Below, piece by piece: positions 673-63,110 of a stretch of 64,000 bases of DNA (positions are counted from its first letter, which is position 1; each line of letters begins with the position of its first letter). Made by a program: the position numbers and the translations under genes. The notes beneath the pieces were generated by a model. That model searched no databases. It was not told the DNA's origin and saw only the letters and a list, made by a program, of their open reading frames with translations. The DNA is from Cordylochernes scorpioides (Eukaryota): the NCBI GenBank assembly GCA_030710605.1, contig CP092864.1, forward strand, positions 139,359,418 to 139,423,417, written 5' to 3'.

Positions 673-1265
673 CTTACTAGCGGACGTACCCGGCTTCGCC
701 CGGGTTTTACCCGAGTAAAAGTTTGTCTAACGAATCTCTCGATAAAGTGAACATTTTTTTCCCGGTCCCTTGAAAAATACTCGATAAGTTGAATAAAATC
801 AATATTAATTGGTTCCCTCGGTAATTGGAAGTAAAAGGAATAGTATCTTGCCTTGGAATTGTATCATTATTCTTGTATGGATGTACCCGGCTTCGCCCGG
901 GTTTTACCCGAGTAAAGGTTTGTTTAACGAATCTCTCGATAAAGTGAACATTTTTTTCCCGGTCCCTTGAAAAATACTCGATAAGTTGAATAAAATCAAT
1001 ATTAATTGGTTCCCTCGGTAATTGGAAGTTAAAGGAATAGTATCTTGCCTTGGAATTGTATCATTATTCTTGTATGGATGTACCCGGCTTCGCCCGGGTT
1101 TTACCCGAGTAAAGGTTTGTTTAACGAATCTCTCGATGAAGTGAACATTTTTTTCCCGGTCCCTTGAAAAATACTCGATAAGTTGAATAAAATCAATATT
1201 AATTGGTTCCCTCGGTAATTGGAAGTTAAAGGAATAGTATCTTGCCTTTGAATTGTATCATTATT
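673..1265. repeat. Tandem repeat, about 3 × 190 bp, inside Helitron-like family A
   Basis: The unit 'gtacccggcttcgcccgggttttacccgagtaaaggtttgt…ggaattgtatcattattcttgtatggat' repeats at about 690, 880 and 1070. Confidence 0.8.
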
Positions 1266-1590
1266 CTTGTCTCAAATAAATTGCCGTGTCATCCTGAATT
1301 TTGTCTTTCCTAATTTTCTACATTACAAAATCATCGTATCATCATGATAATATTTAGAGCAGATTGTTGAATTATAACAGATAAATTAGAATATTTATCT
1401 TGATTATTTCTAGGCGAAAAGTTATTTCAAAAATTTTATTTGCTAGAAACCTTCCCAGTACTATACTAAATAACTTCCCAAAGTTTCATGGCGATCCAAT
1501 GAGTGGTTTGGTCAGGCATAAAGGACAAACAAACAAACAAACAGACACACATACATTCATTTTTATATATATTATCTTATTTAATGCTTA
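673..1590 (-). mobile_element. Helitron-like non-autonomous element, family A (3 internal ~190-bp tandem units)
   Basis: On the - strand it ends …CCGGGCGAAGCCGGGTACGTCCGCTAG followed by T (CTAG at 673-676 on +). The other end is …acattcatttttatatatat (1560-1585). Copies of the same ~900 bp are at 41640-42330 and 62405-62896. Confidence 0.55.
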
Positions 1591-4353: not shown

Positions 4354-5212
4354 TATAATCCAATTTATATACACCTTATCATTTTGACACCACCCCAAAG
4401 GTTAGATGCTTCTGGTTAAATTAAAGTAGGTAATTTGGTTGAAACTTGAAAACTCTGACTGAACTATGGTATGTGTTGAATTATAGTCTGTTGAATTAAC
4501 TGTACATTAATACCAATTAGTACCAATTAGGTTAATTAAGAAGATGTTTGTCTGCTACGCAGTCTTGCTTGCTTTTATACAGACAAACCCTACATTTAAA
4601 ATTATCTGAAATAAAGATTGAGGATCTGAAATTACTCCACCTCCAAAGAGAAGATAACCAAAAGTTTGAAGGTTTTTTTTTTTAGTTATTTCCACATGTT
4701 GATTAGTTTGGTGTCTATTTTGATGGGAGAGACAACCTTTATTTTTATAGATCAATTTACTCACCGCAAGATCTATATATATGTTATATATAAAAACAAA
4801 TGAGATTTGATTTTCTGCTTGATTTTTGATCATGTTGAGGATTATGGTAATGTAATGCAGTCGTGGTTAAATCTTGAAAGTATATGATAATAAAAATAAT
4901 TTTGATCAGTAATTTAATTGAACTAAAGGAATATATAAAAGAACATAATTTGATAAAAGTAATGCCTGGCTTAAGGCAAGTAAAACAAGGAAAAACAAAA
5001 GAATATTTACATAATGTAAAAAAGTTTTGAGCCGGCCATTGGGATAAAACAACAACAATGAGTATTTATAGAGAAAGCGTGACCTCTGGCGGTCGATTTA
5101 AACAGAGTATTTGAATCGATGAAATATAATTTTAAAATAATACCTTTATATAACATACTAAACGAATGACCCGGGCAACGCCCGGGTTTACACGATTAAA
5201 TGTATATTATTA

Positions 5213-6468
5213 GGAGTACAAATAAGTTTTGAGGGATTTTTTTATAAATTCGAAGCTTTATTCAGAGAAATTAGTACAATATATTTCATTCAAAGTATTG
5301 TCCATCTTTAGCTACGACTTTTTCCCATCTTTCAGGCAGCATACGGATATCGTGTCGAAAAAATTCCTCGTCTTTTGAGGCGATCCAAACATTGACCCAA
5401 TTTTTCGCCTCTTCGTAAGAAGTGAAGTGCTGCTCGGCCAGGCCATGTGTCATCGAACGGAACATGTGGTATTCTGAAGGAGCAATGTCTGGTGAATACA
5501 GCGGGTGGGGTAGGACATCCCATTGAAGCGCCTCCAAAGTCTCCTTGACAACTTTTGCAACATGTGGCCGAGCGTTGTCGTGCTGATAGATCACCTTGTC
5601 ATGTCTTTTGGCATATAGTGGGCATTTAATCTTCAATGCTCGGCTTAATCGCATCAATTGTTGTTGGTAACGTTCTCCAGTGATGGTTTCGTTAGGCTGA
5701 AGTAGCTCATAGTAGATCACTCCGAGCTGATCCCACCAGATGCACAGCATTTGCTTCTTGCCATGAATATTCGGTTTGGCCGTTGAAGTTGATGCATGAC
5801 CGGGCTTAACCCACGATTTTCCGCGCTTTGGGTTGTCGTAGTGAATCCACTTTTCGTCCCCCGTCACGATTCGATGCAAAAAAACCCTTCCGATTTTGTC
5901 TTTTGAGCAGTAGTTCGCACGTGCAAATACGGCGCTCGATGTTTCCTGGCTTGAGTTCATATGTAACCCAATTTCCTTGTTTTTGCACCATACCCATGAC
6001 CTTGAGACGGTTCGAAATCGCTTGTTGAGTCACTCCCAAGGTTTCAGCGAGCTCCTCTTGAGTTTGGCTTGAATCTTCGTCCAATAAAGCCTCCAACTCA
6101 GCGTCTTCGAACTTTATTGGCCTCACTCCGCGTTCTTTGTCTCTGGTGTCAAAATTGCCACTTTTGAAACGCCGAAACCAGTACTCACATGATTTTATTG
6201 ATAGAGCATGTTTACCATATGCCTCACACAGCAATCGATGTCCATCAGTTGCACTTTTCTTCAAATTAAAACAAAAAAGCAGCGCTTCCCGCAAATTGTG
6301 TTTTGTTGGCAAAAAAGTTGACATGGTTAGAGCACCAAAAAAAAGTTCCTTACACTTGAGTAAAAGACTTCTTCTGATTTTTTTGGGGAAATGATGAAGG
6401 TCTGATGCTATTTATATAATATTTGTTGTGGCTTCTTTTGCAAATCCCTCAAAACTTATTTGTACTCC
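5213..6468 (-). mobile_element. Tc1/mariner (Mos1-like) DNA transposon, defective copy
   Basis: About 27-bp TIRs: ggagtacaaataagttttgagggattt (5213-5239) and its reverse complement (6442-6468). The internal transposase shows close similarity to Mos1. Confidence 0.85.
5286..6324 (-). pseudogene. mariner (Mos1-like) transposase, frameshifted. N-terminal HTH part is ORF 5806-6324; DDE/D part is ORF 5286-5960.
   Basis: Peptides match Mos1: 'LLFCF.LKK.A...HR.L.EA.G', 'HRIVTGDEKWI.Y.NPKR', 'WWDQ.GVIYYELL', 'HDNARPHVA', 'PHP.YSPD.APS.YH'. The two ORFs overlap in different frames, which indicates a frameshift. Confidence 0.85.
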
Positions 6469-6929
6469 AAATACATATGGAAGATGGACGTAGTTCCCGC
6501 AGGTCACCCGCGAGGCTTTTTTCTGTGTCACCAACTCTGCCCCCGCGCGCCAGGACCTCTTGATCCCTCTGATTGGTCGGTGGGAACTTGGACTGTCCAA
6601 CCGGCCGGCAGCCAGACGATTACATTTTCTCGGAGGGGGGGGGGGCCCGGGGGCAGGGAAGTCACATGCTTGCCGGCAGCCAATGGGCGCGTGCCGCCGT
6701 CAGATCGCCTGCGTTCTAGAGGGCGCTGCTCGTGAGCTAAGTAGAATAATTTGAATATATAGTTTTAATAATTGATTTATATATTTTTTAAAATAGCCTA
6801 TCGTCATCCCCGTTAATTTTTACCTATGTATGGAAATTTTGGTTTGAATTAGTGAACTACTGCGAATTTGTATACCGTGCATACAGACCAACAGACAAAC
6901 ATACAAACATTCATTTTTATATATATAGA

Positions 6930-8340: not shown

Positions 8341-8444
8341 ATACAGTAGAACACCTCTTTGTAAAGGAAAACACCTAGTTGCTGGGCCAAAGTGTCCTTT
8401 AGGGTGAGGTGTGCTCCAATGGAAAAGTTTCTTTTTAGTAAAAA
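8341..8444. mobile_element. MITE-2 left half, a duplicate of 8848-8951
   Basis: 104 bp identical to the start of the full copy downstream. The two are separated by the Helitron-like element. Confidence 0.6.
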
Positions 8445-8850
8445 CTAGCCGAATGACCCTGGCAACGCCCGTGTTTTACCCGATTGATTGTTTTGATTCA
8501 AATACTATTTGTTACAATTATAAATTGGCGCCTTAAATAAATGCATATATTAGTTAATAACTATAGCCTATGTGCTTTATCTGTCTATGTACTGTTGGCT
8601 TCCGTAGGCGTCTCTTACTGGGAAAAAGAAAGAGAGGATTCCATTTAGTTATTAACTAATATATGCATTTTTATTTAAGGAGCGACCTGCTCCAACACAA
8701 TAGTTACAAAAACCAAAAAGCGAGTGGGGGGGGGGCAAAGGTGGCGTGATCGTAGCCAACCAATAGGAGAGCGCCATTCCAGAAAAAAAGCAAACGGTGA
8801 CAGAGATGAAGAATTAAGAATGCATGACGCTCGTAACTGTATATAGAATA
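8445..8850 (-). mobile_element. Helitron-like element, family X (~410 bp)
   Basis: It begins CTAGccgaatgaccctggcaacgcccgtgttttacccgatt (reverse complement: hairpin, ~8 nt, CTAG|T). It ends …caaacggtgacagagatgaa…gacgctcgtaactgtatatagaata. Near-identical copies are at 10062-10470, 38440-38865 and 27764-28165. Confidence 0.6.
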
Positions 8851-9036
8851 CAGTAGAACACCTCTTTGTAAAGGAAAACACCTAGTTGCTGGGCCAAAGT
8901 GTCCTTTAGGGTGAGGTGTGCTCCAATGGAAAAGTTTCTTTTTAGTAAAAATGGTCATTTGGGTGATATGAAAACTGTTCTTTGTAGAGAAATGTCTGAT
9001 GAAAGTCTCTTCCTCTCATGGAGGATTTTCTACTGT
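8848..9036. mobile_element. MITE-2 full copy
   Basis: atacagtagaacacctctttgtaaaggaaaacacctagttgctgggcc… through …catggaggattttctactgtat. Confidence 0.7.
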
Positions 9037-9828
9037 ATCATAAAATAGTGTTCAAATGCTCTCAAGAGCCCCTTAGACTACAGTAGGTTCCCAAACACCT
9101 TCAACTTCACATCTATTTTATAATGCCCCCCCCCCCCCCCAACAAAGTCTTCTATAAGAAGAACTAATCCCCTCTAAAAGTTTTCATTGCCCACTGGAAG
9201 GTTGAACTTACCGCCCACTTTGAGATAATTCCTATCTTTTCTTGTTTCTTGGAAAGTTCCCCTCCAAGAGTTGGTTTACTACCAGACCCACAGTCCACTC
9301 CTGACACTTGGTGGGTTTGCCAGTCTGCAGGTTTAACAGGAGCCACCAAAAGGGATTTATTACAAATATCTATCTTACAGTAATTTGTGGATTTACCCTA
9401 GAATTTGATATGCTTTGGTTAATGCCTCTCCTTTTACCCCACTGAACCGAGAGACTAAAAATGCTCACTAATCTTGGAAGTTGTCATTCTTTGGAAGATC
9501 ACAACTGCATGTATATATCTTACAAACTCTTTATTTTCCTTCAATTTGTTTTCTAAGCAATCTCTGTAAAGAACACTTGGCTTATGACTTGGCATTATCT
9601 AAGTTATCCCAATTTCATACATGCTCTGCAGCTTCTCACATTCAAGTCTAGCAGCTTTAACAACACCTAGCTATGAGAATGATGTAAAACTGATCTGTAT
9701 CAGTGAAATAGAAAATGTGAATTGACAGAAGTGGAGTACTAGCATTAAAACACATTGAAACTAATGCCATATATCAACCATTATCTGAACTACACTCATG
9801 GACAATACATAAAGAAGTTGTACCTTGA

Positions 9829-10058
9829 TTAGGCACAATTTGGATTATAGATTATAAACACAAGGTAATAAGACCAAATCCAAATAAATAAATAGTGTGT
9901 GACGTTTCGGTAACAGCGTTGTTACCATCTTCAGACAAAAGTACTGAATAAGAAAATTTTACCACAGCATGTGGCTGAAAATGGTAACAACGCTGTTACC
10001 AAAACGTCAAACACTATTTATTTATTTGGATTTGGTCTTATTACTTTGTGTTTATAAT
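9829..10058. mobile_element. MITE-1 full copy
   Basis: Both arms are near-perfect. It abuts the Helitron-like element at 10062. Confidence 0.75.
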
Positions 10059-10061
10059 CTA

Positions 10062-10470
10062 CTAGCCGAATGACCCGGGCAACGCCCGTGTTTTACCCGA
10101 TTGAGTGTTTTTATTCAAATACTATTTGTTACAATTATAAATTGGCGCCTTTTATAAATGCATATGTTAGTTAATAACTATAGCCTATGTGCTTTATCTG
10201 TCTATGTACTGTTGGCTTCCGTAGGCATCTCTTAGTGGGGAAAAAGAAAGAGAGGATTCCATTTAGTTATTAACTAATATATGCATTTATTTAAGGGGCG
10301 ACCCGCTCCAACACAATAGTTACAAAACGAAATAGCGAGTGGGGGGGGGCAAAGGTGGCGTGATCGTAGCCAACCAATAGGAAAGCGCCATTCCAAAAAA
10401 AAAGCAAATGGTGACAGAGATGAAAAATTATTAAAAACGCATGACGCTCGTAACTGTATATAGAATAATC
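10062..10470 (-). mobile_element. Helitron-like element, family X
   Basis: Same termini and body as 8445-8850. CTAG at 10062-10065 is preceded by T on the complementary strand. Confidence 0.6.
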
Positions 10471-10919: not shown

Positions 10920-13339
10920 CCCTTAAGCGGTCGCAATGGGTAAAAATTACCCAGAAGGAACTTTTCGAAAATATTTCTATATTAAAAAATATATATATTT
11001 AAAATATATTCTCAGTACCTTTCTAAATCTATCTAAAGATTATTATAATAAACCTATAATTTTAATTTTATGACATATATTCATTTTATTAGCATGTTTG
11101 GGTCAATTTTACCCAGTGCGACCTTTTGAGTTCTCATCATTGGGTAATTTTTACCCAGCGCGACCTTTTAACGCTTTTGGTTTTGGTTTGCGTAATTAAG
11201 TTTCGAGTTACTTTCTGGCTTCTTGTTGTTTGGTTTTGCTGCCCCAAGTGCAATAATACAATCTATTCTTCCAACAATAAGGTAGGATTTATATTTTATT
11301 TCCTCTTTTTACATTATTTTACATAAAATGCTTTCAAATGCTGATTTTCTCCGTGATTATAATAATATTCCAAATCCCGATGATGAGGAATCAGAAACTG
11401 ATGATCATATAGAAGAGAGGAATTGGAGTACAGACACTGAACAGTATACATTATCAGAAGAAGAAAACAATGAGGATCCAAGCTTCAATTACTATATAGG
11501 AAAGGACCAAAAGACTAAATGGAAGAAAGCTCTTCCCCCAAAAAATGTTCGAACTCGCAGTGAAAATATTATCACCCATCTACCAGGGGTAAAGGGTGAA
11601 GCAAAAAATGCTAAATCGATATTAGATTGTTGGAATCTCTTTATAAATGACAATATACTTGAATGCATAGTTACAAATACTAATATTTACATTAGGAATA
11701 TTCAGCAGAACTATAGCAGAGAAAGAGATGCTAATTTGACAAACCTACAGGAAATTAAAGCTTTATTGGGAATTATTTACTTTCTTGGGGTCATGAAAGC
11801 GAATAAATTGAATGGGCAAGAGATAGTACTGGATTTGAATTGTGTAGAATAGCTATGTCTGAAAACAGATTCCGATTTCTTCTCAGAGTAATTCGTTTTG
11901 ATGACAAAGCTAAAAGAAATGAAAGACTTCGTCAAGATGAATTAGCAGCTGTGAGATTGATTCTTGATACTTTTGTAAAAAATTGCCAAAAGCATTATTC
12001 TCCTTCGGAATATATAACGGTGGATGAAAAGCTTGACGCTTTCAGAGGGAAATGCAATTTCAGGCAGTATATTCCGAGTAAACACAATAAATATGGAATA
12101 AAATTATTTGCTCTCGTGGATTCAAAAATGTTTTATACTTGTAACTTGGAGATTTATTCAGGAAAAAACCCTGAAGGTCCTTACAATGTCAGCAACAGTC
12201 CAAGTGACGTTGTGGAACGATTGTGTGAGCCAATCAAGGGAACTGGCCGCAATGTAACAATGGATAACTGGTTCACCAGTTATTCTTTAGCTCTAAAACC
12301 TTTACAACAATTTTGACTAACAATTGTTGGTACCTTAAAAAGAAATAAAAAGGAAATCCCCTCAGAGTTTGTCATCAGCAGAGGTAGAAATGTACACACT
12401 AGTGTTTTTGGCTTTCAAAGTGAAATGACACTTCTTTCATACAAGCCTAAAGAGAATAAAGTTGTACTTATGCTTTCAACTCTGCACCACGATGCAAATA
12501 TAGATGATTCAACGGGAGAATTGAAAAAGCCAGAGATGATAATGTTTTATAATATGACAAAGGGTGGTGTAGATATGATGGACGAAATGACAGCTACATA
12601 TAACTGTGCTAGAAATTCAAGAAGATGACCCATGGTTATTTTTTATTCACTTTTAAATATTGGGGCAATAAATTCCCAGATAATTCATTTTGCAAATGGC
12701 AACGCATCAAAGGTTAAATCAAGACGTCATTTTTTAAAAACCTTATCCTTAGATCTTATTGAAGTGATGGTCAAAGTTCGCACAGTAAACGGAAGAATAC
12801 CATGTGAAATAAAGGAAAAGGCATCCGATATTTCTAATTTGTTAGAGCCTGGTCCATCTAAAAAGCCAAAAATAGGAAAAAGACATCGATGCAAGAAATG
12901 CCAGAAAGAAAAAAAGGACAAAAACTATTCAACATTGCCAGTACTGTTTTGCTTTTTTGTGTAAGGAACACTCTGTAATAATTTGTCAAGAATGTCATAA
13001 AGGACGAAACAAGTCCTAATTTCTATGAAAGGAAGTGATAACTTTCATACAAATTTATATTTTATAACCTATCTTCAATATATATTTTTATTTTCATAAA
13101 ATAGTCGAATATATCATAAATATTTGATATTTTGATTTGTTATTAATAAAATAAATAAAATATGATTTTTATATCTCAAAATTTTATGTAAAGTTATTTA
13201 ATAGACAAATCATTATTCTAACATAGAAAACAATAAAAATATTGAAAAGAATATTTGATTTATTTAGGTTTTTAAAAGTGGGTAAATTTTACCCACCGCG
13301 ACCTTTCAAGGTATAAAAGAGGGCGCGACCGCTGCCGGG
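10920..13339 (+). mobile_element. piggyBac-superfamily DNA transposon (family 1), near full length but decayed
   Basis: Flanked by TTAA (10916-10919 and 13340-13343). Termini are cccttaagcggtcgc… and …gcgaccgctgccggg (TIR ccc..agcggtcgc). Subterminal repeats 'gggtaaa(a)ttttacccag.gcgacctttt' occur at 10940, 11100-11170 and 13275. Confidence 0.8.
11328..13018 (+). pseudogene. piggyBac transposase (DDD domain plus C-terminal Cys-rich domain), broken into 4 ORFs
   Basis: Peptides 'FRFLLRVIRFDD', 'VDEKLDAFRGKCNFRQYIPSKHNKYGIKLFALVD', 'NVTMDNWFTS', 'MFYNMTKGGVDMMD', and the C-terminal 'RCKKCQKEKKDK…CQYCFAFLCKEHSVIICQECHKG' CRD. The ORFs sit in different frames. Confidence 0.85.
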
Positions 13340-13365: not shown

Positions 13366-13700
13366 CACAATTTGGATTATAGATTATAAACACAAGGTAA
13401 TAAGACCTAATACAAATAAATAAATAGTGTGTGACGTTTCGGTAACAGCGTTGTTACCATCTTCAGACAAAAGTACTGAATCATATATATCAGAAATGGA
13501 AATTTGCACATCACATACTTTGAGGACTATTAGAAGATCATCTTTTGACCATTTTCTATGACTGTCCTAACTCTACACAGAAGTGAGATTGTTTGATTCA
13601 GTACTTTTGTACTAAGATGGTAACAACGCTGTTACCGAAACGTCACACACTATTTATTTATTTGGATTTAGGTCTTATTACCTTGTGTTTATAATCATAC
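13366..13700. mobile_element. MITE-1 full copy with a ~120-bp internal insert shared with 18445-18545
   Basis: Both arms are intact. The internal 'atcagaaatggaaatttgcacatcacatactttgaggactattag…' also occurs at 18448. Confidence 0.7.
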
Positions 13701-14402: not shown

Positions 14403-14960
14403 ACTAGACGAATGACCCGGGCAACGCCCGGGATTATTCGATTAAATGTTTTATTCAAACACTATGCGTTATAATTATAAATTTGGCGCCGTGGATGTCA
14501 CTCTTGTGAAACGTCCCGTCCAAACTTTACATGTACATTAGGTCAGCTGATATTACCTCCCATCTTCACCGCTAGAGGCGCTTCTCGCGAGCAAAAGGGC
14601 AAACTCGACGAATATTCGGGAAAGAGACCTGAAAATTTCACTAGAAGTTTTTCCAGATTCTACTCTATATACTGTTAAAATTTCAGTCAGATTAGTTACG
14701 ATATAAATCTTCAAATCGAGCGAGCGTCTATAAATATTTCGATTTAGATCAACTATTCTAAATATTAAGCGAACTATTATTAAGAAACCTTTTTAGAAGA
14801 TTTCAATTTTAAATGTATTTATAACCTTGATAGAGGGCGCTGTTCGTGAGCTAAGTAGAATAATTTGAATATACAGTTTTAATATTTAATTTATATATAA
14901 TTTAAAATAACCTATCGTTTTCCTCGTATTTTTTTTTTTTACCTATGTATGGAAATTTAG
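14403..14960 (-). mobile_element. Helitron-like element, family B-type, divergent or truncated
   Basis: CTAGacgaatgacccgggcaacgcccgggattattcgattaaatg terminus. The body shares '…ttggcgccgtggatgtca…' and 'tagagggcgctgttcgtgagctaagtagaataatttgaatat…' with the other copies. Confidence 0.45.
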
Positions 14961-15169
14961 GTACTGTAAAAAAAAACTTTGCTTCAATAATATATATATA
15001 AAAAAAAACCACCCAGGTTAAGTTTCGAACCAAGGTTGCAGAAATACGAAGCCATACACCTAACCATTAAGCTACGCTTGGCATAATAAATATTCGCATG
15101 TAAAGCTATTTCAGGCCTTACATATTACTAACGACCTTTTTGAAACATGGAAATTATAATACTTCAAAT

Positions 15170-15420
15170 AAATAGAAATAGAGTGAACACAAATAAAGCG
15201 TACCAAATATTTCGAATTAGAGCAGGCATTTTAAACGGCGAATTAGATAAGTTATATCTAAAGATGAAAATATATAAATAAATAAAACATACCAAATATT
15301 GCAAGAGAAGTTATTTTAAACGGCGAATTAGATCAGTTATAGCTAAAAATGAAAATATATACGTAAATAAAACCTACCAAATATTTCAAATTAGAGCAGC
15401 TATTACAGTAAAACCCCTCT
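15170..15420. repeat. Tandem ~80-bp units (taccaaatatttcgaattagagcag…ttttaaacggcgaattagat.agttat..ctaaa.atgaaaatatat) belonging to the family-B body
   Basis: About 3 units. The same unit recurs at 18040-18125. Confidence 0.6.
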
Positions 15421-15668
15421 ATAGTGAACCCCAATGGGACAGAGCTTTTGGTTCACTATAGCCACGGTTCACTATAGCCACGGTTTGGCTATTTTTTTTT
15501 ACTTTTCAAAATTTTTAGACCGTATAATTAAAGGACAGCTATACACACAAGAAGAGGCTTCTTCTTAATAGTGGTCACTTTGTTTTAATTCCCTTAATTG
15601 ACCAATTTCCTTACAATAATACTGAATGATAATAGAAATCATTAGATGATGGTTCTTCTTATCATTAA

Positions 15669-16964
15669 CCCGTAATTACTGGCGTTCGGCTTGAAAGGCC
15701 GTGTGAAAATTTAAAATGTTTGCGAAATTTTCAAAATGCAATATTTTTCATCAAAATTTTAGGTAGCTTAATAAAATGCATTTATTTGAAGAACTTTTCA
15801 TTTTAAGAGAAATCTCTTTTGTATACCCCGAGTTATTAAATCAAACGGCCTTTAAAGCCGAGCGCCAGTAATTACGTCACTGGGAATTTTAGCGCTCCTA
15901 TTATTGGCCGTTTCACTTTTGGTTTTATAGACGTTCAAACGCAACAAATAAGTTGAGCATTCGTTTTTTTATTACTCTTGCTTCAATTATATGCATTCTA
16001 AATTGTGTTTTGTGATTGTAATTTTGTATAATATAATAGAAGTTCGGTTCCACTTTTGGTTTTTCAAAAAACAAAAATTTGGTATCCTATGTCTCTAAAA
16101 TTGGAAAATCTGTTATATTACTCTCCACAATGCATTTGACCACAACAATTGATCAAGAAACTGCTGAACAATAAAAGCCCGAGATAATCACATTTTATAA
16201 TATGACCAAAGGTGGTGTAGATGTAGTTGATCAGACATGTATTCAGTTGGAAGAAGAACCAAAAGATGGCCTCTGTGTTTATTTTTCAACTTTTTGGATG
16301 TGGTTGCAATAAATTTAGCAGTAATTTATAAGGCTGTCAACCAAGACGGTGGAATGGCTCGAAAAGATTTTATAAAGCAGCTTGCTCTACAACTAATGAA
16401 AGATGCCTTGAATATGAGAAATCAAGCCAAATATTTGTCAAGAGATCTGCAAGTATTAATTCAGAAGCATGCTGGAACTTCATCACTTGAGGTAGGCAAA
16501 TATTTATTTGATATTCAAAGGAAATATCAATAATATGTGTTATCTAGGAATCCACAAGCGGCAGTCCTTGGTCCAAAAAAACGCAAAAGATGCTACCCAT
16601 GTAAAAAAGATCGTCGAACTCAAATGCAATTCAAAAAATGCAAAGAACCAATCTGCAAAGATCATTCTATTGAAATATGCTTGAATTGTGCATCTAATCT
16701 TGAATAAAATATTTTAGATAGAATTTTTTAGAATATATATAGAATATTTTAGATAGAAAGAGTTTCTTGTACATTTTCATTTAATTTTGTTTAGAGCTCT
16801 GTTTATTTGAAAAAAACAAAATATTTATTCTTTGTAAATTATGTGTATACGTTTAATTTCTTTTTATTTTATAAATAACATGGTTTATTATTGATTTTAA
16901 AAGACGGCCTGAGAGGCCGAACGCCAGTAATTGTGTAAGGAAAATAGGCGCCAGTAACTAAGGG
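15669..16964 (+). mobile_element. piggyBac-superfamily element (family 2), internally deleted non-autonomous copy
   Basis: TTAA at 15665-15668 and 16965-16968. The TIRs are cccgtaattactggcg… and …cgccagtaactaaggg. A subterminal inverted copy 'gccgagcgccagtaattacg' is at about 15860. Confidence 0.7.
16190..16682 (+). pseudogene. piggyBac transposase C-terminal fragment (…FYNMTKGGVDVVDQ… plus Cys-rich domain CYPCKKDRRTQMQFKKCKEPICKDHSIEICLNCASNLE)
   Basis: It carries a C-terminal cysteine-rich domain and a …NMTKGGVD… motif of the same kind as family 1's transposase, but at clearly different nucleotide sequence. It has a stop codon and is missing the N-terminal two-thirds. Confidence 0.75.
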
Positions 16965-17799
16965 TTAACATACATGTACCTCTATGTCTAATTTAAAAAT
17001 TAAGACAAATCCTAGGCAAAGTTTTATTAAATATATATTCAAATATATAAAATGATTTTAAAGCATCGTTATCACATTATATAAAACATTGTTTACTTGG
17101 AAAAATGGCTCTAACACCTTGTTGCTTCAAAACATTCTTCAAGCATTGCACCATTCAAATAAAGTTAGTGTTTTTCTTCCATTTCATTTTCCCACATATA
17201 CTTCTAGGTCTAGATTTCGTTTTTTTTTTTTTAAACCTGTCATGCAAAACATTGCTGACTTTAAAATCACCATAGTTAATGGCATAAAAATAGTTTTTGT
17301 TTCATCACGGGACTATTTATTTGTATTTTTTTTTTTTTTAGCCCTAAAACGTACGATCGCGTTCGCGGCAAAAGTTGAGGTCGATTTCTCTTTGTAACAA
17401 TTTTTAATAGCTTTATATTTTGTCTTTTATAATAGAAATTCTTAACATTTTGCCTGTGTTGTTTCACTTTGAAAAGTTCTGAAAATGGCCTTTTTTTTTT
17501 TAAAGAAATAACGCTTTTGTTTTTAAAATGCCTTTGTTTTCTTCATTTTGGAAGCCATTTGTATTTTTATATTTCAAATTTAATGGATGCAAATATATTT
17601 TATTTAATAAAAAGTATAATGTGTTAAAATTTATACAACATACAGCAAAAATAAAGTGCAAAATTCAAAGCAAACAATGCCGCTAAATGTATTGTTTTGA
17701 AATCGCGATCCGCGAGCTGAAACATGCGTAAAATTTGGTTGTTTTAATTTTTTTTTAATTACAAAATTCAAGTTCGTTATAAGCATAGTATTTTAAATA

Positions 17800-17990
17800 G
17801 ATTTTATCATTTTGGGACCAAAAATAGGTTCGTTATAGGGGTAGTTCGTTATTCTAAAAATCGCAAAGTTCGTTATAACGATGGTATTTTCAATGAAATG
17901 GAATTGGGAATCGACGTGGGTTCGTTATAAGGGAAGGTTCGTTATATCCAGGGTTCGTATTAGAGGGGTTTTACTGTATATAAATATTTA
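17800..17990. repeat. Repeat family with reiterated 'GTTCGTTATA' motif (6-7 times), ending '…gggttttactgtat'
   Basis: Copies at 33385-33530 and 61265-61345. A CpG-decayed relative 'gttcactatagcca' is at 15400-15490 and 26335-26600. Confidence 0.5.
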
Positions 17991-17994
17991 TATT

Positions 17995-18442
17995 ATATGT
18001 GTTATTAAGCGAACTATTATTAGTTATTTTAAAAGGCGAATTAGATCAGTTATATCTAAAAATGAAAATATATAAATAAATAAAACCTACCAAATATTTC
18101 AAATTAGAGCAGTTATTATATAAATATTTATATTATATGTGTTATTAAGTGAACTATTATTAATAAAATATTGAGAAGATTTAGATTTTAAACGTATTTA
18201 TAACCTTTTAGTACTTGATAGAGGGCGCTGTTCATGAGCTAAGTAGAATAATTTGAATATATAGTTTTAATAATTGATTTATATATTTTTTAAAATAGCC
18301 TATCGTCATCCCCGTTATTTTTTACCTATGTATGGAAATTTTGGTTTGAATTAGTGAACTACTGCGAATTTGTATACCGGGCATACAGACCAACAGACAA
18401 ACATACAAACATTCATTTTTATATATATAGATAGATATATAT
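17995..18442 (-). mobile_element. Helitron-like family B partial copy (5'-terminal part)
   Basis: It ends '…caaacattcatttttatatatatag' at 18440 and shares the 18215-18440 block with 6716-6928 and 38235-38420. Confidence 0.45.
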
Positions 18443-18595
18443 ATCAGAAATGGAAATTTGCACATCACATACTTTGAGGACTATTAGGTGATCATCTTTT
18501 GACCATTTTCTATGACTGTCCTAACTTTACACAGAAGTGAGATAGTTCCCAGATCTAAATGATTTACTCTCTTATACCAACCACTTTGTTTATAT

Positions 18596-18951
18596 CTTCT
18601 TCTTCTTTCTTATCTCCACTCAATCATATCAGGTTATCAAGCTTGTAGAGCTTGAAACTTGACAACCACCATGACTGGGTGAAGTAGAATGCGTCTGCCT
18701 TTGTCATTAAGACTGGGAGCACTACTCAGTGGCAGGCCGACTTAGCTCCAAAAGAAATGGCCGCCTCTGACATGAGGAACAGACGCCATGTGCAGCCGCT
18801 CCTAACATGGAGTACAAACGCTGCTCATCCTGTATCCCTGGATTAGGAGCCCTTACAGGGTACTATCAGCCGGACCAGCTGAACCCAGGTTTTTTAGTGA
18901 GCTTGTTACTGCTCCCCCTCCTCCTTTTTCATCCGGGCTTGGGACCGGCAA
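18596..18951 (-). mobile_element. SINE-1 full copy
   Basis: Same consensus as 25-392. It ends 'ccgggcttgggaccggcaa' at 18951. Confidence 0.7.
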
Positions 18952-19864: not shown

Positions 19865-20625
19865 AAAATGTATCCACCTAAAACCGGTACAATTTCACAT
19901 TTGTACTATTTTTTCACATTAAAGAAGTGTTGTTCTCAAAGGGAGGTCTGAAATAGGTAATTTTTTTTTGTTGCTTATCCCAAGTACACGTGGTACAGGC
20001 CATGATAATCATGGTGGGTAGAAGTACCTAAACCCAGTACAATTTCACATTTGTACTATTTTTTTCACATTAAAGAAGTGTTGTTCTCAAAGGGAGGTCT
20101 GAAATAGGTAGTTTTTTTTTTGCTTATTCCTAGTACACGTGGTACAGGCCATGATAATCATGGTGGGTAGAAGTACCTAAACCCAGTACAATTTCACAAT
20201 TGTACTATTTTTTTCACATTAAAGAAGTGTTGTTCTCAAAGGGTGGTCTGAAATAGGTAGTTTTTTTTTGCTTATTCCTAGTACACGTGGTACAGGCCAT
20301 GATAATCATGGTGGGTAGAAGTACCTAAACCCAGTGCAATTTCACATTTGTACTATTTTTTTCACATTAAAGAAGTGTTGTTCTCAAAGGGAGGCCTGAA
20401 ATAGGTAGTTTTTTTTTGCTTATTCCTAGTACACGTGGTACAGGCCATGATAATCATGGTGGGTAGAAGTACCTAAACCCAGTACAATTTCACATTTGTA
20501 CTATTTTTTCACATTAAAGAAGTGTTGTTCTCAAAGGGTGGTCTGAAATAGGTAGTTTTTTTTTTGCTTATTCCTAGTACACGTGGTACAGGCCATGATA
20601 ATCATGGTGGGTAGAAGTAGGCGAA
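19865..20625. repeat. Satellite, ~127-bp unit × 6, derived from a SINE-2 3' end plus flanking sequence
   Basis: Each unit contains the reverse complement of 'ctacccaccatgattatcatggcctgtaccacgtgtactagg' and 'gggataagcaaaaaaaa'. Confidence 0.85.
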
Positions 20626-20775
20626 TGCTTTTACTGTAAGTACACCACATGTCTACACATGCGAAAAGCAGTTCAACTTTCACTTACAAATGCGCCAGAG
20701 CCCCATTTGATTACTTGCACTCGCTGGTGGGGTTGGACTTTTGCAAGAATCGGGCCATTGGAGCATTTTTTTTTA
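20560..20775 (-). mobile_element. SINE-2 copy (3' part) abutting the SINE-derived satellite
   Basis: Reverse complement of 'gctccaatggcccgattcttgcaaaagtccaaccccaccagcgagtgcaagtaa… gtagacatgtggtgtac…ctacccaccatgattatcatggcctgtaccacgt'. Confidence 0.6.
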
Positions 20776-22575: not shown

Positions 22576-22885
22576 ATCTTCTTCTTCTTTCTTATCTCCA
22601 CACTGGGTGAAGTAGAATGCGTCTGCCTTTGTCATTAAGACTGGGAGCACTACTCAGTGGCAGACCGACTTAGCTCCAAAATAAATGGCCGCCTCTGACA
22701 TGAGGAACAGACACCATGTGCAGCCGCTCCTAACATGGAGTACAAACGCTGCTCATCCTGTATTTCTGGATTAGAAGCCTTTACAGGGTAATATCAGCCG
22801 GGCCAGCTGAGCCCAGGTTTTTTAGTGAGCTTGTTACTGCTCCCCCTCCTCCTTTTTCATCCGGGCTTGTGACCGGCAAGGGCGG
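22576..22885 (-). mobile_element. SINE-1 copy with an internal/tail deletion
   Basis: tcttcttctttcttatctccacac|tgggtgaagtagaatgcg… It lacks the 'tcaatcatattagggtatcaag…' segment. Confidence 0.65.
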
Positions 22886-22894
22886 AGTTATGAT

Positions 22895-23939: not shown

Positions 23940-24253
23940 AACTGTCTTCTTCTTCTTTCTTATCTCCACACTGGGTGAAGTAGAATGCGTCTGCCTTTGT
24001 CATTAAGACTGGGAGCACTACTCAGTGGCAGGCCGACTTAGCTCCAAAAAAAAAATGGCCGCCTCTGACATGAGGAACAGATGCCATGTGCAGCCGCTCC
24101 TAACATGGAGTACAAACGCTGCTCATCCTGTATCCCTGGATCAGGAGCCCTTACAGGGTACTATCAGCCGGGCCAGCTGAACCCAGGTTTTTTTAGTGAG
24201 CTTGTTACTGCTCCCCCTCCTCCTTTTTCATCCGGGCTTGGGACCGGCAAAGG
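23940..24253 (-). mobile_element. SINE-1 copy, short-tail variant
   Basis: Same deletion variant as 22576-22885. Confidence 0.65.
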
Positions 24254-24284
24254 CGAAAGTAGATTTTAACTGTAAGTTTTGCCA

Positions 24285-27072: not shown

Positions 27073-27763
27073 ATACAAAGTAATAACGCGTCACTATATA
27101 TAACGAATGAAGACATTATTTAAATGTAATTCTACTATCCTAAAAGCTTATATCCATAGTTTGCTTAAATACCATTTCTAAGATTCCACCCTTCAGCGCA
27201 GCATATAAAAGCAAAATGATCCAATACAGTATTGGTGCTCTAAAGAAGCGGTCTGGTAGATTAAAAAAAAAAAAAATTGGCAAAATCACTAGGAGGGTTC
27301 ACCACTGATGAGCCAAGCTCTCCTAATATTTTTCATCGCAGTAAGGACAGTAAAAGTTTGATTTATGTATGAAAAGAAACATTTGCATCTTAATGTCTTC
27401 AAGAGAATAAATGATCATTATAAAGCATCAATGCCACAAAATCTTGATTTTTTAGATGAAAAGTCAAACCCTAGAACAAATACGCCATTGGACATCATGT
27501 TGACATCAGCAGCTGTAGATTCCTCCATTGTACAAGCCGGCCCAACTTGATACAGCAAATGTCTGACAACAACCTCAGGTAGGGAAGTTGAATCAGGAGG
27601 AAGGAGCGTGGAGACAATGGAGGTGTTGGTTGGGTCAGCTCCCCCATACCAATTAAGAATTTCATCACAGAGTTGAAATACTTCCTCCCACATATCATTA
27701 TTTTTGGTGGTGGTGGTGGTCATTGAATCACACTTCTTTCTTCCCCTTCCCCCTTTAAGGAAT

Positions 27764-28165
27764 TCTATATACTGTTACGAGTGTCATGCGTTCTTAATAA
27801 TTTTTCATCTCTGTCACCGTTTGCTTTTTTTTGGAATGGCGCTCTTCTATTGGTTGGCTACGATCACGCCACCTTTGCCCCCCCCCCCACTCGCTTCTTC
27901 GTTTTTGTAACTATTGTGTTGGAGCGGGTCGCTCCTTAAATAAATGCATATATTAGTTAATAACTAAATGGAATCCTCTCTTTCTTTTTCCCAGTAAGAG
28001 ACGCCTACGGAAGCCAACAGTACATAGACAGATAAAGCACATAGGCTATAGTTATTAACTAACATATGCATTTATTTAAGGCGCCAAATTATAATTGTAA
28101 CAAATAGTATTTGAATCAAAACATTCAATCGGGTAAAACACGGGCGTTGCCCGGGTCATTCGGCT
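27764..28165 (+). mobile_element. Helitron-like element, family X, + orientation
   Basis: Reverse complement of the 10062-10470 copy. It ends …cgggcgttgcccgggtcattcggCTAG|T at 28165. Confidence 0.6.
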
Positions 28166-28345
28166 AGTGTGAAGAGAAGAGAGATTAAGGTTGAAACTAC
28201 TTTATTACAATCCATATAAGTTTAAATATAAAATACTGAATATAAATAAGGCTAAATAATGATAAATATATGGATAAAATAAATATAAATGTATAAGGTA
28301 ATTTATAAATATACATATACAGTTATTTAAGAGGCGTAATATTCT

Positions 28346-29372: not shown

Positions 29373-29509
29373 ATTGTGTTGGGAAAAAAATGACGCTTTT
29401 CAATCTCATTCGTCTCTTTTGAGTTATTATATAGAAGTTATTTTGAGAGATGCAGGAAAAGAATCATGGAAGTAATACATTTATTTGGAAGAGCAGATAG
29501 TCTTCTTCT

Positions 29510-29872: not shown

Positions 29873-30059
29873 AGAGCAGATAGTAGAGTGTGGTAACAGT
29901 GGTTTGGTCTTGATGATGGAGATCTCCTTGTAGTGAAGCCACTGAGGTTGTTGAGAGGATCTTCTTACATGTTCACACCATTGCCCACACTGGGATGTTG
30001 TCCCTGAGTCAACAGCCTAGTCACAAATATATTTCTCTGTCTCTATGATAAACATGATA

Positions 30060-35529: not shown

Positions 35530-35835
35530 ACTAGCCGAATGACCCGGGCAACGCCCGGGTTTTACCCGATTAAATACTTTTATTCAAATACTATTCGTTA
35601 CAATTATAAATTGGCGCCGTGGATGTCATTCTTGTATAATATATAAATGAGTTTTAAAAATTGTAAAAAAATGCATCGGCCGGGAATTGAACCCGGACTG
35701 CCCTCGTGGCAGGCAAGCATTCTACCACTGAACCACCGATGGTTATGAGAAATGGCCATATTTGGGTATTTATTCCATTCACAAAGCAAACGGTGACAGA
35801 ATTGATTAAGAAAGAATTGATTATGACGCTGATAA
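35530..35835 (-). mobile_element. Helitron-like element, tRNA-Gly-carrying variant
   Basis: CTAGccgaatgacccgggcaacgcccgggttttacccgatt terminus at 35530. The internal family-X segment is replaced by '…ggcgccgtggatgtcattcttgtataatatataaatgagttttaaaaattgtaaaaaaa' plus the tRNA-Gly-like copy. It then rejoins 'caaacggtgacagaattgatta…gacgctgataactgtatat'. Confidence 0.55.
35672..35743 (-). pseudogene. tRNA-Gly(GCC)-like copy inside a Helitron-like element, acceptor stem degenerate
   Basis: Reverse complement is accatcggtggttcagtggtagaatgcttgcctGCCacgagggcagtccgggttcaattcccggccgatgca. The 5' end CCATCGG fails to pair with the 3' end at position 1. Confidence 0.55.
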
Positions 35836-36232
35836 CTGTATATATTAATACTCTAATGAATGTATCACAGTTAATAGATTTTTTAAAAAGTATCCTTGCA
35901 ATACACTTGAATCTCTCTGTAACAACATCACTTGGGACCAATACACTCGAGGACATAACTGAAGAATCTGTTCCTTTTAGCACATATATCAGGATTCAGA
36001 CAATAACTGAAAAATGTTTGGTACAAAGTGACCTTTATTGAAGACACATGAGATAACCAATGTGAACAAAATTGCCTGTCTCCTTAAAAAAATAGATGAC
36101 AGGTGGCATCAAAGACTTTCCACTTCTTCAAGTTTTGTCCGTGAGTGTATTTTATTTTGTTATAAACAACATTAGTTATTAAAGAGGTTTTATAAGGACT
36201 TCGATATATATATATATATTGTTTTGAAAATA

Positions 36233-38425: not shown

Positions 38426-38439
38426 TATATATTATTACT

Positions 38440-38865
38440 AGCCGAATGGCCCGGGCAACGCCCGTGTTTTACCCGATTGAATGTTTTTATTCAAATACTA
38501 TTTGTTACAATTATAAATTGGCGCCTTAAATAAATGCATATATTAGTTAATAACTATAGCCTATGTGCTTTATCTGTCTATGTACTGTTGGCTTCCGTAG
38601 GCGTCTCATACTGGGAAAAGGAAAGAGAGGATTCCATTTAGTTATTAACTAATATATGCATTTATTTAAAGAGCGACCCGCTCCAAAACAATAGTTACAA
38701 AAACGAAAGAGCGAGTGGGGGAGGCATGATGGGGGGGGCGAGGGCAAAGGTGGTGTGATCGTAGCCAACCAATAGGAGTGCGCCATTCCAAAAAAAAAAG
38801 CAAAAGATGACAGAGACGACTGATGAGGAATGACGCTCGTAACTGTATATAGAATTACTATATGA
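38440..38865 (-). mobile_element. Helitron-like element, family X
   Basis: CTAGccgaatggcccgggcaacgcccgtg… through …gacgctcgtaactgtatatagaat. It lies directly adjacent to the previous fragment. Confidence 0.6.
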
Positions 38866-41639: not shown

Positions 41640-42330
41640 TACTAGCGGACGTACCCGGCTTCGCCCGGGTAAAACCCGAGTAAAGGTTTGTCTAACGAAT
41701 CTCTCGATAAAGTGAACATTTTTTCCCGGTCCCTTGAAAAATACTCGATAAGTTGAATAAAATCAATATTAATTGGTTCTCTCGGTAATTGGAAGTTAAA
41801 AGAATAGTATCTTGCCTTGGAATTGTATCATTATTCTTGTATGGATGTACCTGGCTTCGCCCGGGTTTTACCCGAGTAAAGGTTTGTCTAACGAATTTCT
41901 CGATAAAGTGAACATTTTTTCCCGGTCCCTTTAAAAATACTTGATAAGTTGAATAAAATCAATATTAATTGGTTCCCTCGGTAATTGGAAGTTAAAAGAA
42001 TAGTATCTTGCCTTGAAATTGTATCATTATTCTTGTCTCAAATAAATTGCCGTGTCATCCTGAATTTTGACTTTCCTAATTTTCTACATTACAAAATCAT
42101 CGTATCATCATGATAATATTTAGAGCAGATTGTTGAATTATAACAGATAAATTAAAATATTTATCTTGATTATTTTTAGGCGAAAAGTTATTTCAAAAAT
42201 TTTATTTGCTAGAAACCTTCCCAGTACTATACTCAATAACTTCCCAAAGTTTCATGGCGTTCCAATGAGTGGTTTGGTCAGGCATAAAGGACACACACAC
42301 ATACATTCATTTTTATATATATAGATTTAC
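41640..42330 (-). mobile_element. Helitron-like element, family A (2 internal tandem units)
   Basis: CTAGcggacgtacccggcttcgcccgggtaaaacccgag… through …cacacatacattcatttttatatatatag. Colinear with 673-1590. Confidence 0.55.
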
Positions 42331-50586: not shown

Positions 50587-50895
50587 TTGTAAGTTTTGGA
50601 GACAAATTTTGCAAATTCAATAAAAATATCTTTATAAATAGAAAAATGATAGGCACAATTTGGATTATCTCTATATATATAAAAGTCAATGTCTGTCTGT
50701 TTCGTGATAAACTCAAAAACTACTGAACCAATTGGTACCAAATTTTGTATGTCGCTTTTTATAAACCTGAGGAAAATTTTAGGCTACATTTTGATTAGTA
50801 TTTTTGGCTATTTCTTTTTTTCATTTGAAGAACTTTTTTTTACGCAGAGTAATCCGGAATTGAATGAATACCCAAATATGGCCATTTTTTTATAA

Positions 50896-50966
50896 GCATC
50901 CGTGGTTCAGTGGTAGAATGCTCGCCTGCCACGCGGGCAATCCGGGTTCGATTCCCGGCCGATGCA
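50896..50966 (+). tRNA. tRNA-Gly (anticodon GCC), near-canonical, embedded in a Helitron-like repeat
   Basis: gcatccgtggttcagtggtagaatgctcgcctGCCacgcgggcaatccgggttcgattcccggccgatgca. It is close to the canonical eukaryotic tRNA-Gly-GCC. The D-arm and T-arm (GGTTCGATTCC) are intact, with one acceptor-stem mismatch (C6:C67). An oligo-T follows immediately. Confidence 0.65.
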
Positions 50967-50983
50967 TTTTTTTTTTTTTTTTT
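50967..50983 (+). terminator. RNA polymerase III terminator (T17 run) directly after the tRNA-Gly
   Basis: An uninterrupted run of 17 T starts one base after the tRNA 3' end. Confidence 0.6.
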
Positions 50984-51237
50984 ACAATTTTTAAAACTCA
51001 TTTATATTATATATAATATAAATATATATTATTATATCAACTATATTAATTAAATCAAATACCTAAACACTAATATAATATAATTTTTGCCATCACACAC
51101 ACTTTTTTCCTGTAGTTTGTGTTACTTCTGTATTGCTATTCTATGGCACTTCTAATATTTATTATTGATGTACTTTCAGTATGAAGGAAATTGCAATCCG
51201 GGGAATTCTCTGGCGAAGCCGGGTCATACGTCTAGTA

Positions 51238-57958: not shown

Positions 57959-57959
57959 A

Positions 57960-58245
57960 CCCGATTAAATGCTTTTATTCAAATACTATTCGTTACAATT
58001 ATAAATTGGCACCGTGGATGTCATTCTTGTATAATATATAAATGAGTTTTAAAAATTGTAAAAAAAAAAAAAATGCATCGGCCGGGAATCAAACCCGGGC
58101 CGCCCGCGTGGCAGGCGAGCATTCTACCACTGAACCACCAATGGTTATGAGAAATGGCCATATTTGGGTATTTATTCCATTCACAAAAGCAAACGGTGAC
58201 AGAATTGATTACGAAAGAATTGATTATGACGCTGATAACTGTATT
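57960..58245 (-). mobile_element. Helitron-like tRNA-Gly-carrying variant, 3'-truncated (no CTAG or hairpin)
   Basis: It starts 'cccgattaaatgcttttattcaaatactattcgttacaattataaattggcaccgtggatgtcattc…' and is colinear with 35569-35835. It abuts a SINE-2 tail at 57958. Confidence 0.5.
58074..58145 (-). pseudogene. tRNA-Gly(GCC)-like copy inside a Helitron-like element, acceptor stem degenerate
   Basis: Reverse complement is ccattggtggttcagtggtagaatgctcgcctGCCacgcgggcggcccgggtttgattcccggccgatgca. It has an A-run (oligo-T on the - strand) after the 3' end. Confidence 0.55.
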
Positions 58246-58416
58246 ATACTTAATAATAAAGTCTCTGAAATGTTTGCCTAATGGAGATGTGACATGTCAT
58301 CTCATGGCTTATTGGATCTCCCTAGCTACTACCAGCTGTCAGAGTTGGTGGTATCTAGGAGTTAAACACGTGGATCTACTCTCACTTTGATAAACTGACT
58401 GTCTTCTGTGTGCCAG

Positions 58417-62404: not shown

Positions 62405-62896
62405 GCAATGGATGGATATAATCTATATTTATATAAAAATGAATGTATGTGTGTCTGTCCTTTATGCCTGACCAAACCACTCATTGGAACGCCATGAAAC
62501 TTTGGGAAGTTATTTAGTATAGTACTGGGAAGGTTTCTAGCAAATAAAATTTTTGAAATAACTTTTCGCCTAAAAATAATCAAAATAAATATTCTAATTT
62601 ATCTGTTATAATTCAACAATCTACTCTAAATATTATCATGATTTTGTAATGTAGAAAATTAGGAAAGACAAAATTCAGGATGACACGGCAATTTATTTGA
62701 GACAAGAATAATGATACAATTCCAAGGCAAGATACTATTCCTTTAACTTCCAATTACCGAGGGAACCAATTAATATTGATTTTATTCAACTTATCGAGTA
62801 TTTTTCAAGGGATCGGGAAAAAATGTTCACTTTATCGAGAGATTCGTTAGATAAATCTTTACTCTGGTAAAACCCGGGCGAAGCCGGGTACATCCT
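62405..62896 (+). mobile_element. Helitron-like element, family A, + orientation, 5' part shortened
   Basis: The 5' end is 'atatttatataaaaatgaatgtatgtgtgtctgtcc'. The 3' end is …aaacccgggcgaagccgggtacatcctCTAG|T (62893-62896). Confidence 0.55.
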
Positions 62897-63110
62897 CTAG
62901 TGATCTATAAAAATAAAGGTTGGCTCTCCCATCAAGTAGATGTCAAAACTAGACACCACCTAGTGACTGTCTCTGTAACTAGTGGACTCGAGTCGTTGAC
63001 AAAGCCAGAACACCCTCACTGATATGAGTTCACTAGTTAGTCTAGACAGTCAATAGATGGTGTCTAGGTTTGACATCTACTTTGATGGGAGAGCCAACTT
63101 TTATTCCTAT
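62895..63110. mobile_element. P2-family foldback element
   Basis: Arms are 'aaaggttggctctcccatcaagtagatgtcaaaactagacaccacctagtgactgtc' and its reverse complement. Confidence 0.6.

Follow-up and report, generated by a model that had tools for sequence, protein, structure and literature searches.

Probable non-autonomous Helitrons with reassorted ends, three of them holding a tRNA-Gly gene, in the genome of Cordylochernes scorpioides

Introduction

Can repeats that share little more than their ends belong to a single transposon family, and to which kind of transposon would such a family belong? The question is raised by a stretch of 64,000 nucleotides of the Cordylochernes scorpioides genome (assembly GCA_030710605.1, contig CP092864.1, positions 139,359,418 to 139,423,417 of the forward strand), referred to here at its full length as the window. 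The original prediction for this DNA described about 15 copies of an element ending in a palindrome and CTAG, and likened them to Helitrons only tentatively because no 5' TC had been seen. A canonical Helitron is defined by a 5' TC, a 3' CTRR, a palindrome of 16-20 nt located ~11 bp from the end, insertion between A and T (A^T), and no target-site duplication (TSD) (PMC4067079, PMC6544945). The analysis presented here indicates that the copies very probably belong to one group of canonical Helitrons (rolling-circle transposons) of an animal genome and are non-autonomous; the Helitron assignment has firmer support than was first assumed. The hallmarks that can be examined in sequence are all present, namely the TC, the palindrome with CTAG, the A^T target, and the lack of both TSDs and terminal inverted repeats (TIRs).

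The window is AT-rich (G+C ~35%) and densely repetitive, with 619 repeat pairs in a self-comparison. Thirteen copies of the element, 10 of them on the same strand, add up to 7.2 kb or ~11% of the window. The positions common to all copies are confined to ~10 nt at the left (5') end and ~35 nt at the right (3') end, and the bodies differ. The copies are listed below with their coordinates in the window, ^ marking a border; MITE stands for miniature inverted-repeat transposable element.

A1, 677..1572, minus strand: A-type with three 197-bp 3' units; starts ATATATATAAAAATG, no TC; 3' end GCCGGGTACGTCCGCTAG^T
C1, 5158..6929, minus strand: A/C-type 5' end A^TCTATATATATAAAAATG; GTT-loop 3' end TTTAG^T
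X1, 8445..8848, minus strand: 404-bp X-type, A^TTCTATATACAG...GGCTAG^T; borders from the alignment of the four X copies
X2, 10062..10465, minus strand: 404-bp X-type, at A^T in an arm of a palindromic MITE
BC, 14404..18435, minus strand: one Helitron of ~1.46 kb, A^TCTATCTATATATATAAAAATG ... TCGTCTAG^T, with 85-bp internal repeats
X3, 27763..28167, plus strand: 405-bp X-type
T1, 35531..35846, minus strand: X-type termini around a tRNA-Gly(GCC) fragment; 5' TC mutated (TAATATATACAG)
C3, 38091..38437, minus strand: short C-type with GAA-loop 3' end; exact 5' border uncertain because this end abuts the 3' CTAG of X4
X4, 38438..38854, minus strand: 417-bp X-type, head-to-tail with C3
A2, 41642..42325, minus strand: A-type, A^TCTATATATATAAAAATG ... 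CCGCTAG^T; two 197-bp units
T3, 50668..51235, plus strand: complete Helitron, A^TCTCTATATATATAAAAG ... GTCTAG^T, with tRNA-Gly(GCC)
T2, 57959..58250, minus strand: T-type; hairpin and CTAG lost, truncated at AATCGGGT; 5' end degenerate
A3, 62422..62900, plus strand: A-type, A^TCTATATTTATATAAAAATG ... CCTCTAG^T; one 197-bp unit

The interval 8445-10470 given in the original prediction is not one element: it contains two X copies of 404 bp each (8445-8848 and 10062-10465), separated by unrelated repeats.

Ends of the elements

The right end is the most uniform part of the family. A palindrome of 17 nt, CCCGGGC-GTT/GAA-GCCCGGG, lies 12 nt from the element end in all families. At the 12 terminal right ends it is followed by a constant 8-nt spacer and by CTAG in 11 cases, the twelfth (C1 only) having decayed to TTAG, and T is the base that follows in every case. 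The predicted order of palindrome, eight nucleotides, CTAG and host T therefore holds at every one of these ends, with the single TTAG, and the motif is present at all ten coordinates originally listed; the right ends at 5158 and 38091 are additions. The GTT-loop variant (CCCGGGC-GTT-GCCCGGG) is found in X1-4, T1, BC, and C1, and the GAA-loop variant (CCCGGGC-GAA-GCC(C)GGG) in A1-3, C3, and T3. Folded as single-stranded DNA, most of the palindromes reach -7 to -12 kcal/mol.

The motif is far more frequent than base composition would give: the exact pattern GCCCGGG-N(4-14)-CTAG occurs six times in the window, with 0.03 expected from shuffled sequence. A profile built from the 12 ends detects exactly 15 modules in the window and no others down to E = 1e-8. 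Three of the 15 are internal: they belong to the tandem 197-bp units of A1 and A2 and have ATAC in place of CTAG. The earlier count of about 15 copies thus applies to hairpin modules; the elements number 13, T2 having lost its 3' end.

At the left end, nine of the 13 copies start with TC (TCTATATA...), and in all nine the TC or TTC directly follows a host A. C1, BC, A2, A3, and T3 begin with TC(TA)TATATATAAAAATGAATG, and X1-X4 with TTCTATATACAGTTACGAGCGTCAT, that is, with TTC; TCTATATA represents the first bases common to both left-end types, and the start varies as TTC, TCTC, or TCTATC. The TC lies just upstream of the boundary drawn originally, and it was reported absent because that boundary had been set inside the element, a few bases too far from the true end. 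The left ends had also been said to converge on one sequence. This is correct for the A/C-type copies, which have TATATATAAAAATGAATGT, and does not extend to the X and T copies, which have TATATACAGTTAYSAGCGTCAT instead.

Both borders are sharp. In an alignment of X1-X4, identity starts at A^TTC, stops at CTAG^T, and collapses outside these points into unrelated flanks. The hairpin and CTAG are terminal in a multi-copy alignment, as the original prediction had them.

Insertion sites

Evidence for the mode of insertion comes from a palindromic MITE family that is itself repeated in the window. The site ATTTGGATTA^TAGATTATAAAC of this MITE occurs in 12 copies, of which two are occupied. X2 sits at A^T in one arm of the MITE (occupied site 10061/10466), and T3 sits at the identical site of another MITE copy (50667/51236), matching X2 in both bond and orientation. 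The split bond in both is GGATTA^TAGATT (GGATTA^TAGATTATAA), and X2 and T3 are unrelated elements. The paralogous site GGCACAATTTGGATTA^TAGATTATAAACAC (sequence GGCACAATTTGGATTATAGATTATAAACAC) is intact and unoccupied at ten other places in the window (9838-9859, 13370-13391, 49570-49591, and seven more). Comparison with these empty sites shows that zero bases were duplicated or deleted upon insertion of X2 and T3, the X copy adding only its own extra T. Insertion between A and T without a TSD is thus shown by ten paralogous empty sites for two copies.

The borders of the other copies agree with this result. No TSD of constant length was found among the copies, and none whatever at the two insertions controlled by empty sites. 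When the 5' end is compared with the reverse complement of the 3' end, only 2-5 of 25 bases match, and a search for subterminal inverted repeats, in which the first 50 nt were compared with the last 100 nt, gave a best inverted match no better than in shuffled controls. A consistent TSD or TIR, which the original prediction had named as evidence for a cut-and-paste family, is therefore absent from the copy boundaries.

The repeated occupation of one MITE bond suggests a target preference. The chance that two unrelated Helitrons occupy the same bond at two of 12 MITE sites has a rough upper bound of ~0.04. TATAA occurs within 16 nt downstream in seven of 11 targets against a background of 6%, a comparison in which the motif was chosen post hoc and the sample is small. 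As a separate observation, this motif resembles the elements' own 5' end, TCTATATATATAAAAA.

Mosaic bodies, tandem units, and nested insertions

Between their ends the copies are mosaics, in which two types of 5' end and two types of 3' end are reassorted around unrelated bodies. The 5' end is common to A, C1, BC, and T3, and ~88-105 bp of 3' end are common to X, T1, and BC; C1 and BC have the A/C type on the left and the GTT-loop type on the right. The X family, four copies of 404-417 bp that are 87-95% identical, combines a left end of its own with a right end of the GTT-loop type. Conservation within the X body is highest in a long hairpin with arms of 33-36 bp (CCTTAAATAAATGCATATATTAGTTAATAACTA) spaced ~80 bp apart, at the following positions.

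8531-8670: internal hairpin of X1
10145-10296: internal hairpin of X2
27934-28081: internal hairpin of X3
38521-38665: internal hairpin of X4

A search of the X body against Rfam returned only sub-threshold matches to microRNA precursors, which reflect this long hairpin.

The three copies of the A family are 94-96% identical (96% between A1 and A2) and consist of the A/C left end, a (TGTN)n microsatellite, a unique part of 280-300 bp, and a 3' part made of tandem 197-bp hairpin units. There is one such unit in A3, two in A2, and three in A1, and only the last one carries CTAG. The units of A1 differ from one another at 2-5 positions, compared with 6-10 positions between elements. Because they are closer to each other than to those of other elements, at least the third unit arose in place.

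Two of the longer copies have been interrupted by other transposons. C1 harbors a mariner element of 1.26 kb at 5210-6471 that is bounded by imperfect TIRs (TTAGGAGTACAAATAAG / TTTGGAGTACAAATAAG) and shows a TA duplication; its frameshifted open reading frames (ORFs) are of the Mos1 type and contain the Pfam domains HTH_48 and Transposase_1. BC is split within its 85-bp array by a nested element of 2.57 kb (15406-17976) with CAGTAAAACCCCTCTA inverted ends and TA flanks, which is a Tc1/mariner-like TIR transposon. Excising this element in silico restores the repeat sequence ATATTTATATAATARCTGCTC. The alternative of two elements, at 14404-~15400 and 17977-18435, was rejected, as removal of the nested TIR element leaves a continuous repeat. 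The units of about 80 bp that had been set apart as a "family B" body are therefore the 85-bp interior units of one long element, 14404-18435. Given these later insertions in C1 and BC, the Helitron copies are not very young.

The mosaics are consistent with end bypass, template switching, or recombination, between which the data cannot tell. The suggestion of template switching or capture accordingly agrees with the reassortment of the termini and with the tRNA fragment that three copies have in common (described below); its mechanistic side stays conjectural.

tRNA-Gly genes inside the elements

ARAGORN and Rfam detect three tRNA-Gly(GCC) genes in the window, all of them inside Helitron copies and in Helitron orientation.

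35672-35742: tRNA-Gly(GCC) in T1
50896-50966: tRNA-Gly(GCC) in T3
58074-58144: tRNA-Gly(GCC) in T2

Three copies therefore carry the gene that had been assigned to one variant. The tRNA scores are 45-60 bits, and one or two stem pairs are broken in every gene; the Helitron-borne tRNA-Gly(GCC) genes are decaying. A G1-to-C change is common to the tRNAs of T1 and T2, whose common ancestor was therefore already defective at the time it spread.

A 159-bp fragment holding the tRNA is common to T1, T2, and T3. The captured piece of ~160 bp comprises the tRNA-Gly(GCC), ~35 bp of upstream flank, and the T-run terminator. T1 and T2 are 93% identical across the left module, the tRNA, and the right module, and their flanks are unrelated; of X they retain ~60 bp at the left end and ~90 bp at the right end, with the tRNA fragment in place of the interior. 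In T3 the fragment is bounded by a left end of the A/C type and a right end of the GAA-loop type, and the tRNA lies 228 bp inside. The position of the T3 tRNA within intact borders at a verified empty site, together with the full-length homology of T1 and T2, identifies the tRNA as cargo and not as a neighbor. BC also holds a tRNA-like relic at 15001-15082 (minus strand; GCGTAGCTTAATGGTTAGG ... GGTTCGAAAC ... T-run), for which ARAGORN and Rfam make no call and which may be a second, older capture of an RNA polymerase III (Pol III) gene.

The capture of a non-coding RNA (ncRNA) gene by a Helitron was stated to be undemonstrated as of 2023 (PMC10701932). It could be, as a tentative and rather doubtful proposal, that the T copies are a structurally clean instance of such a capture, in which a canonical Helitron took up and scattered a Pol III ncRNA gene, namely tRNA-Gly-GCC with its flanks. 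The T copies offer a testable example of a type of capture said to be undocumented. The tRNA cargo is the point of wider interest, with relevance to tRNA gene counts and to tRNA-derived small RNAs in this genome; were the family abundant genome-wide, it could explain much of the count of tRNA-Gly genes and pseudogenes.

Evidence against the assignment and alternative explanations

Several features of the locus speak against a canonical Helitron group. TC is lost or mutated in four of the 13 left ends (A1, T1, T2, and C3), and the X family has an extra 5' T. The T3 hairpin is degenerate and weak (-2.2 kcal/mol). The hairpin variants differ in the loop, GTT or GAA, and in single bulges, and compensatory pairs are absent; covariation thus lends the structure no independent support. 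An ORF and Pfam check of the window revealed no recognizable Rep/helicase gene, which makes the copies non-autonomous and places their link to a RepHel transposase on analogy only. A RepHel motif regular expression applied to the six frames of the window yielded two chance matches only, in what is a weak test. In addition, no copy was retrieved from another locus or genome in the searchable collections.

The flanks of two copies belong with these features. X1 is flanked by a perfect direct duplication of 104 bp (8341-8444 = 8848-8951), composed of 'TA' and roughly 100 bp from the start of a ~190-bp Tc1/mariner-type MITE. The layout on the plus strand is MITE positions 1-104, X1, and a complete MITE, and the duplication is not seen at the other X copies. 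It is far too long for a TSD. A1, whose 5' TC is gone, has the 7-bp sequence TAAGATA exactly on both sides (670-676 and 1573-1579), which may represent a 5'-truncated insertion with a short duplication or a chance match in TA-rich DNA. Neither repeat is predicted by textbook Helitron insertion, and both are unexplained. One further possibility out of the ordinary is that the X1 duplication and the reuse of the MITE site record a non-textbook mode of integration or a sequence-specific choice of target.

Direct repeats of this sort, in a window crowded with Tc1/mariner-type MITEs, could be taken as signs of cut-and-paste MITEs, or of a composite made up from other repeats that have only a GC-rich palindrome in common. 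Such elements would be expected to have TIRs and a TSD of constant length, which are absent, the latter entirely so at the two insertions controlled by empty sites; the ends are asymmetric and insertion is orientation-specific, and this explanation is hardly credible. Less remote, yet still highly improbable, is an origin as HINE/DINE-1-like elements moved by an endonuclease-encoding Helentron instead of a canonical Helitron. The (TGTT)n/(TGTC)n microsatellite after the 5' end of several copies, the internal tandem repeats, and the 3' stem-loop are all HINE-like. However, the subterminal inverted repeats of HINEs (~13 bp) are missing, the target is A^T and not TT or T-rich with T-strings at the borders, and the copies end in TC...CTAG, which HINEs do not have.

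The T copies in particular might be tRNA-derived short interspersed elements (SINEs), or tRNA genes beside which Helitrons happened to land, given their Pol III-type tRNA-Gly sequence followed by a T-run and the loss of the 5' TC in T1 and T2. In a SINE of this kind the tRNA would not be expected in the middle of a unit in which T1 and T2 are alike from the 5' module through to the 3' module. The T3 borders A^TC...CTAG^T are intact at a site with empty paralogues, and there is neither a poly(A) or long interspersed element (LINE)-type tail nor a TSD. Transcription of a SINE body would also be prevented, as Pol III would terminate at the T-run immediately behind the tRNA. Among the alternatives considered this one keeps the most weight, and it is very unlikely. 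Local segmental or tandem duplication, a satellite-like spread without transposition, is less probable again. It would account for the tandem 197-bp units in A1 and A2 and for the common strand of 10 of the 13 copies, but not for copies that are scattered across 62 kb, differ in their flanking sequence, and have sharp borders at exactly the same nucleotides, nor for two copies at the same bond in different MITE copies. Membership in a canonical Helitron group is the explanation retained here.

Proposed mechanism and significance

A model for the movement of the canonical Helitron copies can be borrowed from work on Helraiser (PMC4778049, PMC5876387). On this model each copy retains just the signals needed in cis, TC(TATATA...) at the left and the G+C-rich hairpin, 8 nt, and CTAG at the right. 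A RepHel encoded elsewhere in the genome would nick the top strand at the junction of the host A with the 5' TC, and its 5'-3' helicase would peel off the nicked strand until the hairpin and CTAG signal it to stop and cut. The freed single strand would be circularized, and its copying would place the element at another A^T site within AT-rich DNA. If two short ends suffice for movement, the bodies would be free to change. Mobilization in trans by RepHel is inferred by analogy with these systems, and the origin of the chimeras is likewise an inference.

The family is textbook-like and belongs to an ordinary kind of repeat; only its tRNA cargo, the 104-bp flanking duplication, and the apparent target preference are unusual. 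It illustrates known Helitron behaviors, such as the reassortment of ends, head-to-tail insertion, and insertion in AT-rich repeats, as well as the tandem amplification of a terminator module in which the last copy alone keeps CTAG. For genome annotation, its value lies in the fact that a family with differing bodies and short common ends is easily missed or misfiled.

Other repeats and sequence searches

The window contains several repeats apart from the Helitrons. A separate SINE-like family has a poly-G start and a tRNA-like head (GGTTCGATTCCC), and one of its copies truncates Helitron T2. The 3' part of this family has been amplified into arrays. The most abundant repeat in the window is a family of ~300-360 bp with at least 15 copies at 84-97% identity, and two other tandem arrays are very homogeneous. 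A remnant of a piggyBac-type transposase is spread over several frames. The mariner and piggyBac remnants indicate animal nuclear DNA and not prokaryotic DNA, and the tRNA-Gly-GCC sequences point to a probable arthropod.

1750-2033, 20556-20774, 29062-29373, 40677-40964, and others: SINE-like family
19876-20619: array of the SINE-like 3' part, 148 bp x5
31644-32288: array of the SINE-like 3' part, 95 bp x6.7
23-385, 18595-18951, 22577-22890, 23945-24255, 26759-27072, 29501-29873, 51978-52311, and more: ~300-360-bp family
34409-34946: tandem array, 32 bp x 16.8, 98%
39917-40265: tandem array, 67 bp x 5.2, 99%
11286-12625: piggyBac-type transposase remnant (DDE_Tnp_1_7)

Exact and degenerate patterns of the Helitron 3' end gave no match in IMG/VR viral contigs or JGI metagenome contigs. 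The single match in a prokaryotic genome, in a GC-rich Myxococcales metagenome-assembled genome, lacks CTAG and was dismissed as chance. Exact-protein look-ups of three transposase ORFs from the window returned no record. A full-text literature search with six terminal sequence strings returned no Helitron paper, its sole match being an unrelated Mycobacterium paper; judged by these strings, no published element with these terminal sequences was found.

Comparison with known systems

The closest relatives in structure are the non-autonomous members of canonical (Helitron1-type) Helitrons of animals, for example Lep1/Hel1 of insects and the bat HelibatN, mobilized by a Helraiser-like RepHel. 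Features in common are the 5' TC, the 3' CTAG, a palindrome ~8-11 nt from the 3' end, the A^T target, the lack of TSDs and TIRs, and short copies that encode no protein, as well as chimeric bodies, reassorted ends, head-to-tail neighbors, and AT-rich targets (PMC4038834, PMC6544945, PMC3789558, PMC4778049). Unlike these animal elements, the present family includes one subfamily starting with TTC, one subfamily ending in one to three tandem copies of its own hairpin module, and some copies with a tRNA gene. In Helraiser, the TC of the left terminal sequence is joined to A and the CTAG of the right terminal sequence to T, Helitrons abut head-to-tail, and the preference for AT-rich DNA is strongest 3' of the insertion (PMC4778049). 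Both the AT-rich preference on the 3' side and abutting Helitrons are seen here.

HINE/DINE-1 elements are rolling-circle relatives that resemble the present copies in their 3' stem-loop, microsatellites, and central tandem repeats, and differ in having 13-bp subterminal inverted repeats, T-strings at the borders, and TT targets, none of which occurs here (HINE traits as described in PMC4067079). Replitrons, which have short direct terminal repeats and are found in plants, algae, and protists (PMC10288648), were also considered and rejected, as the ends TCTATATA... and ...CTAG are not direct repeats.

The tRNA-Cys cluster of Arabidopsis offers the nearest parallel for the cargo, with tRNA genes inside sequence annotated as Helitron, and its authors discuss tRNA amplification through Helitron activity (PMC10701932). 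In that case the Helitron structure was confirmed by no predictor and the genes form a local tandem cluster (PMC10701932). Here, in contrast, the tRNA lies between verified Helitron ends and the copies are dispersed.

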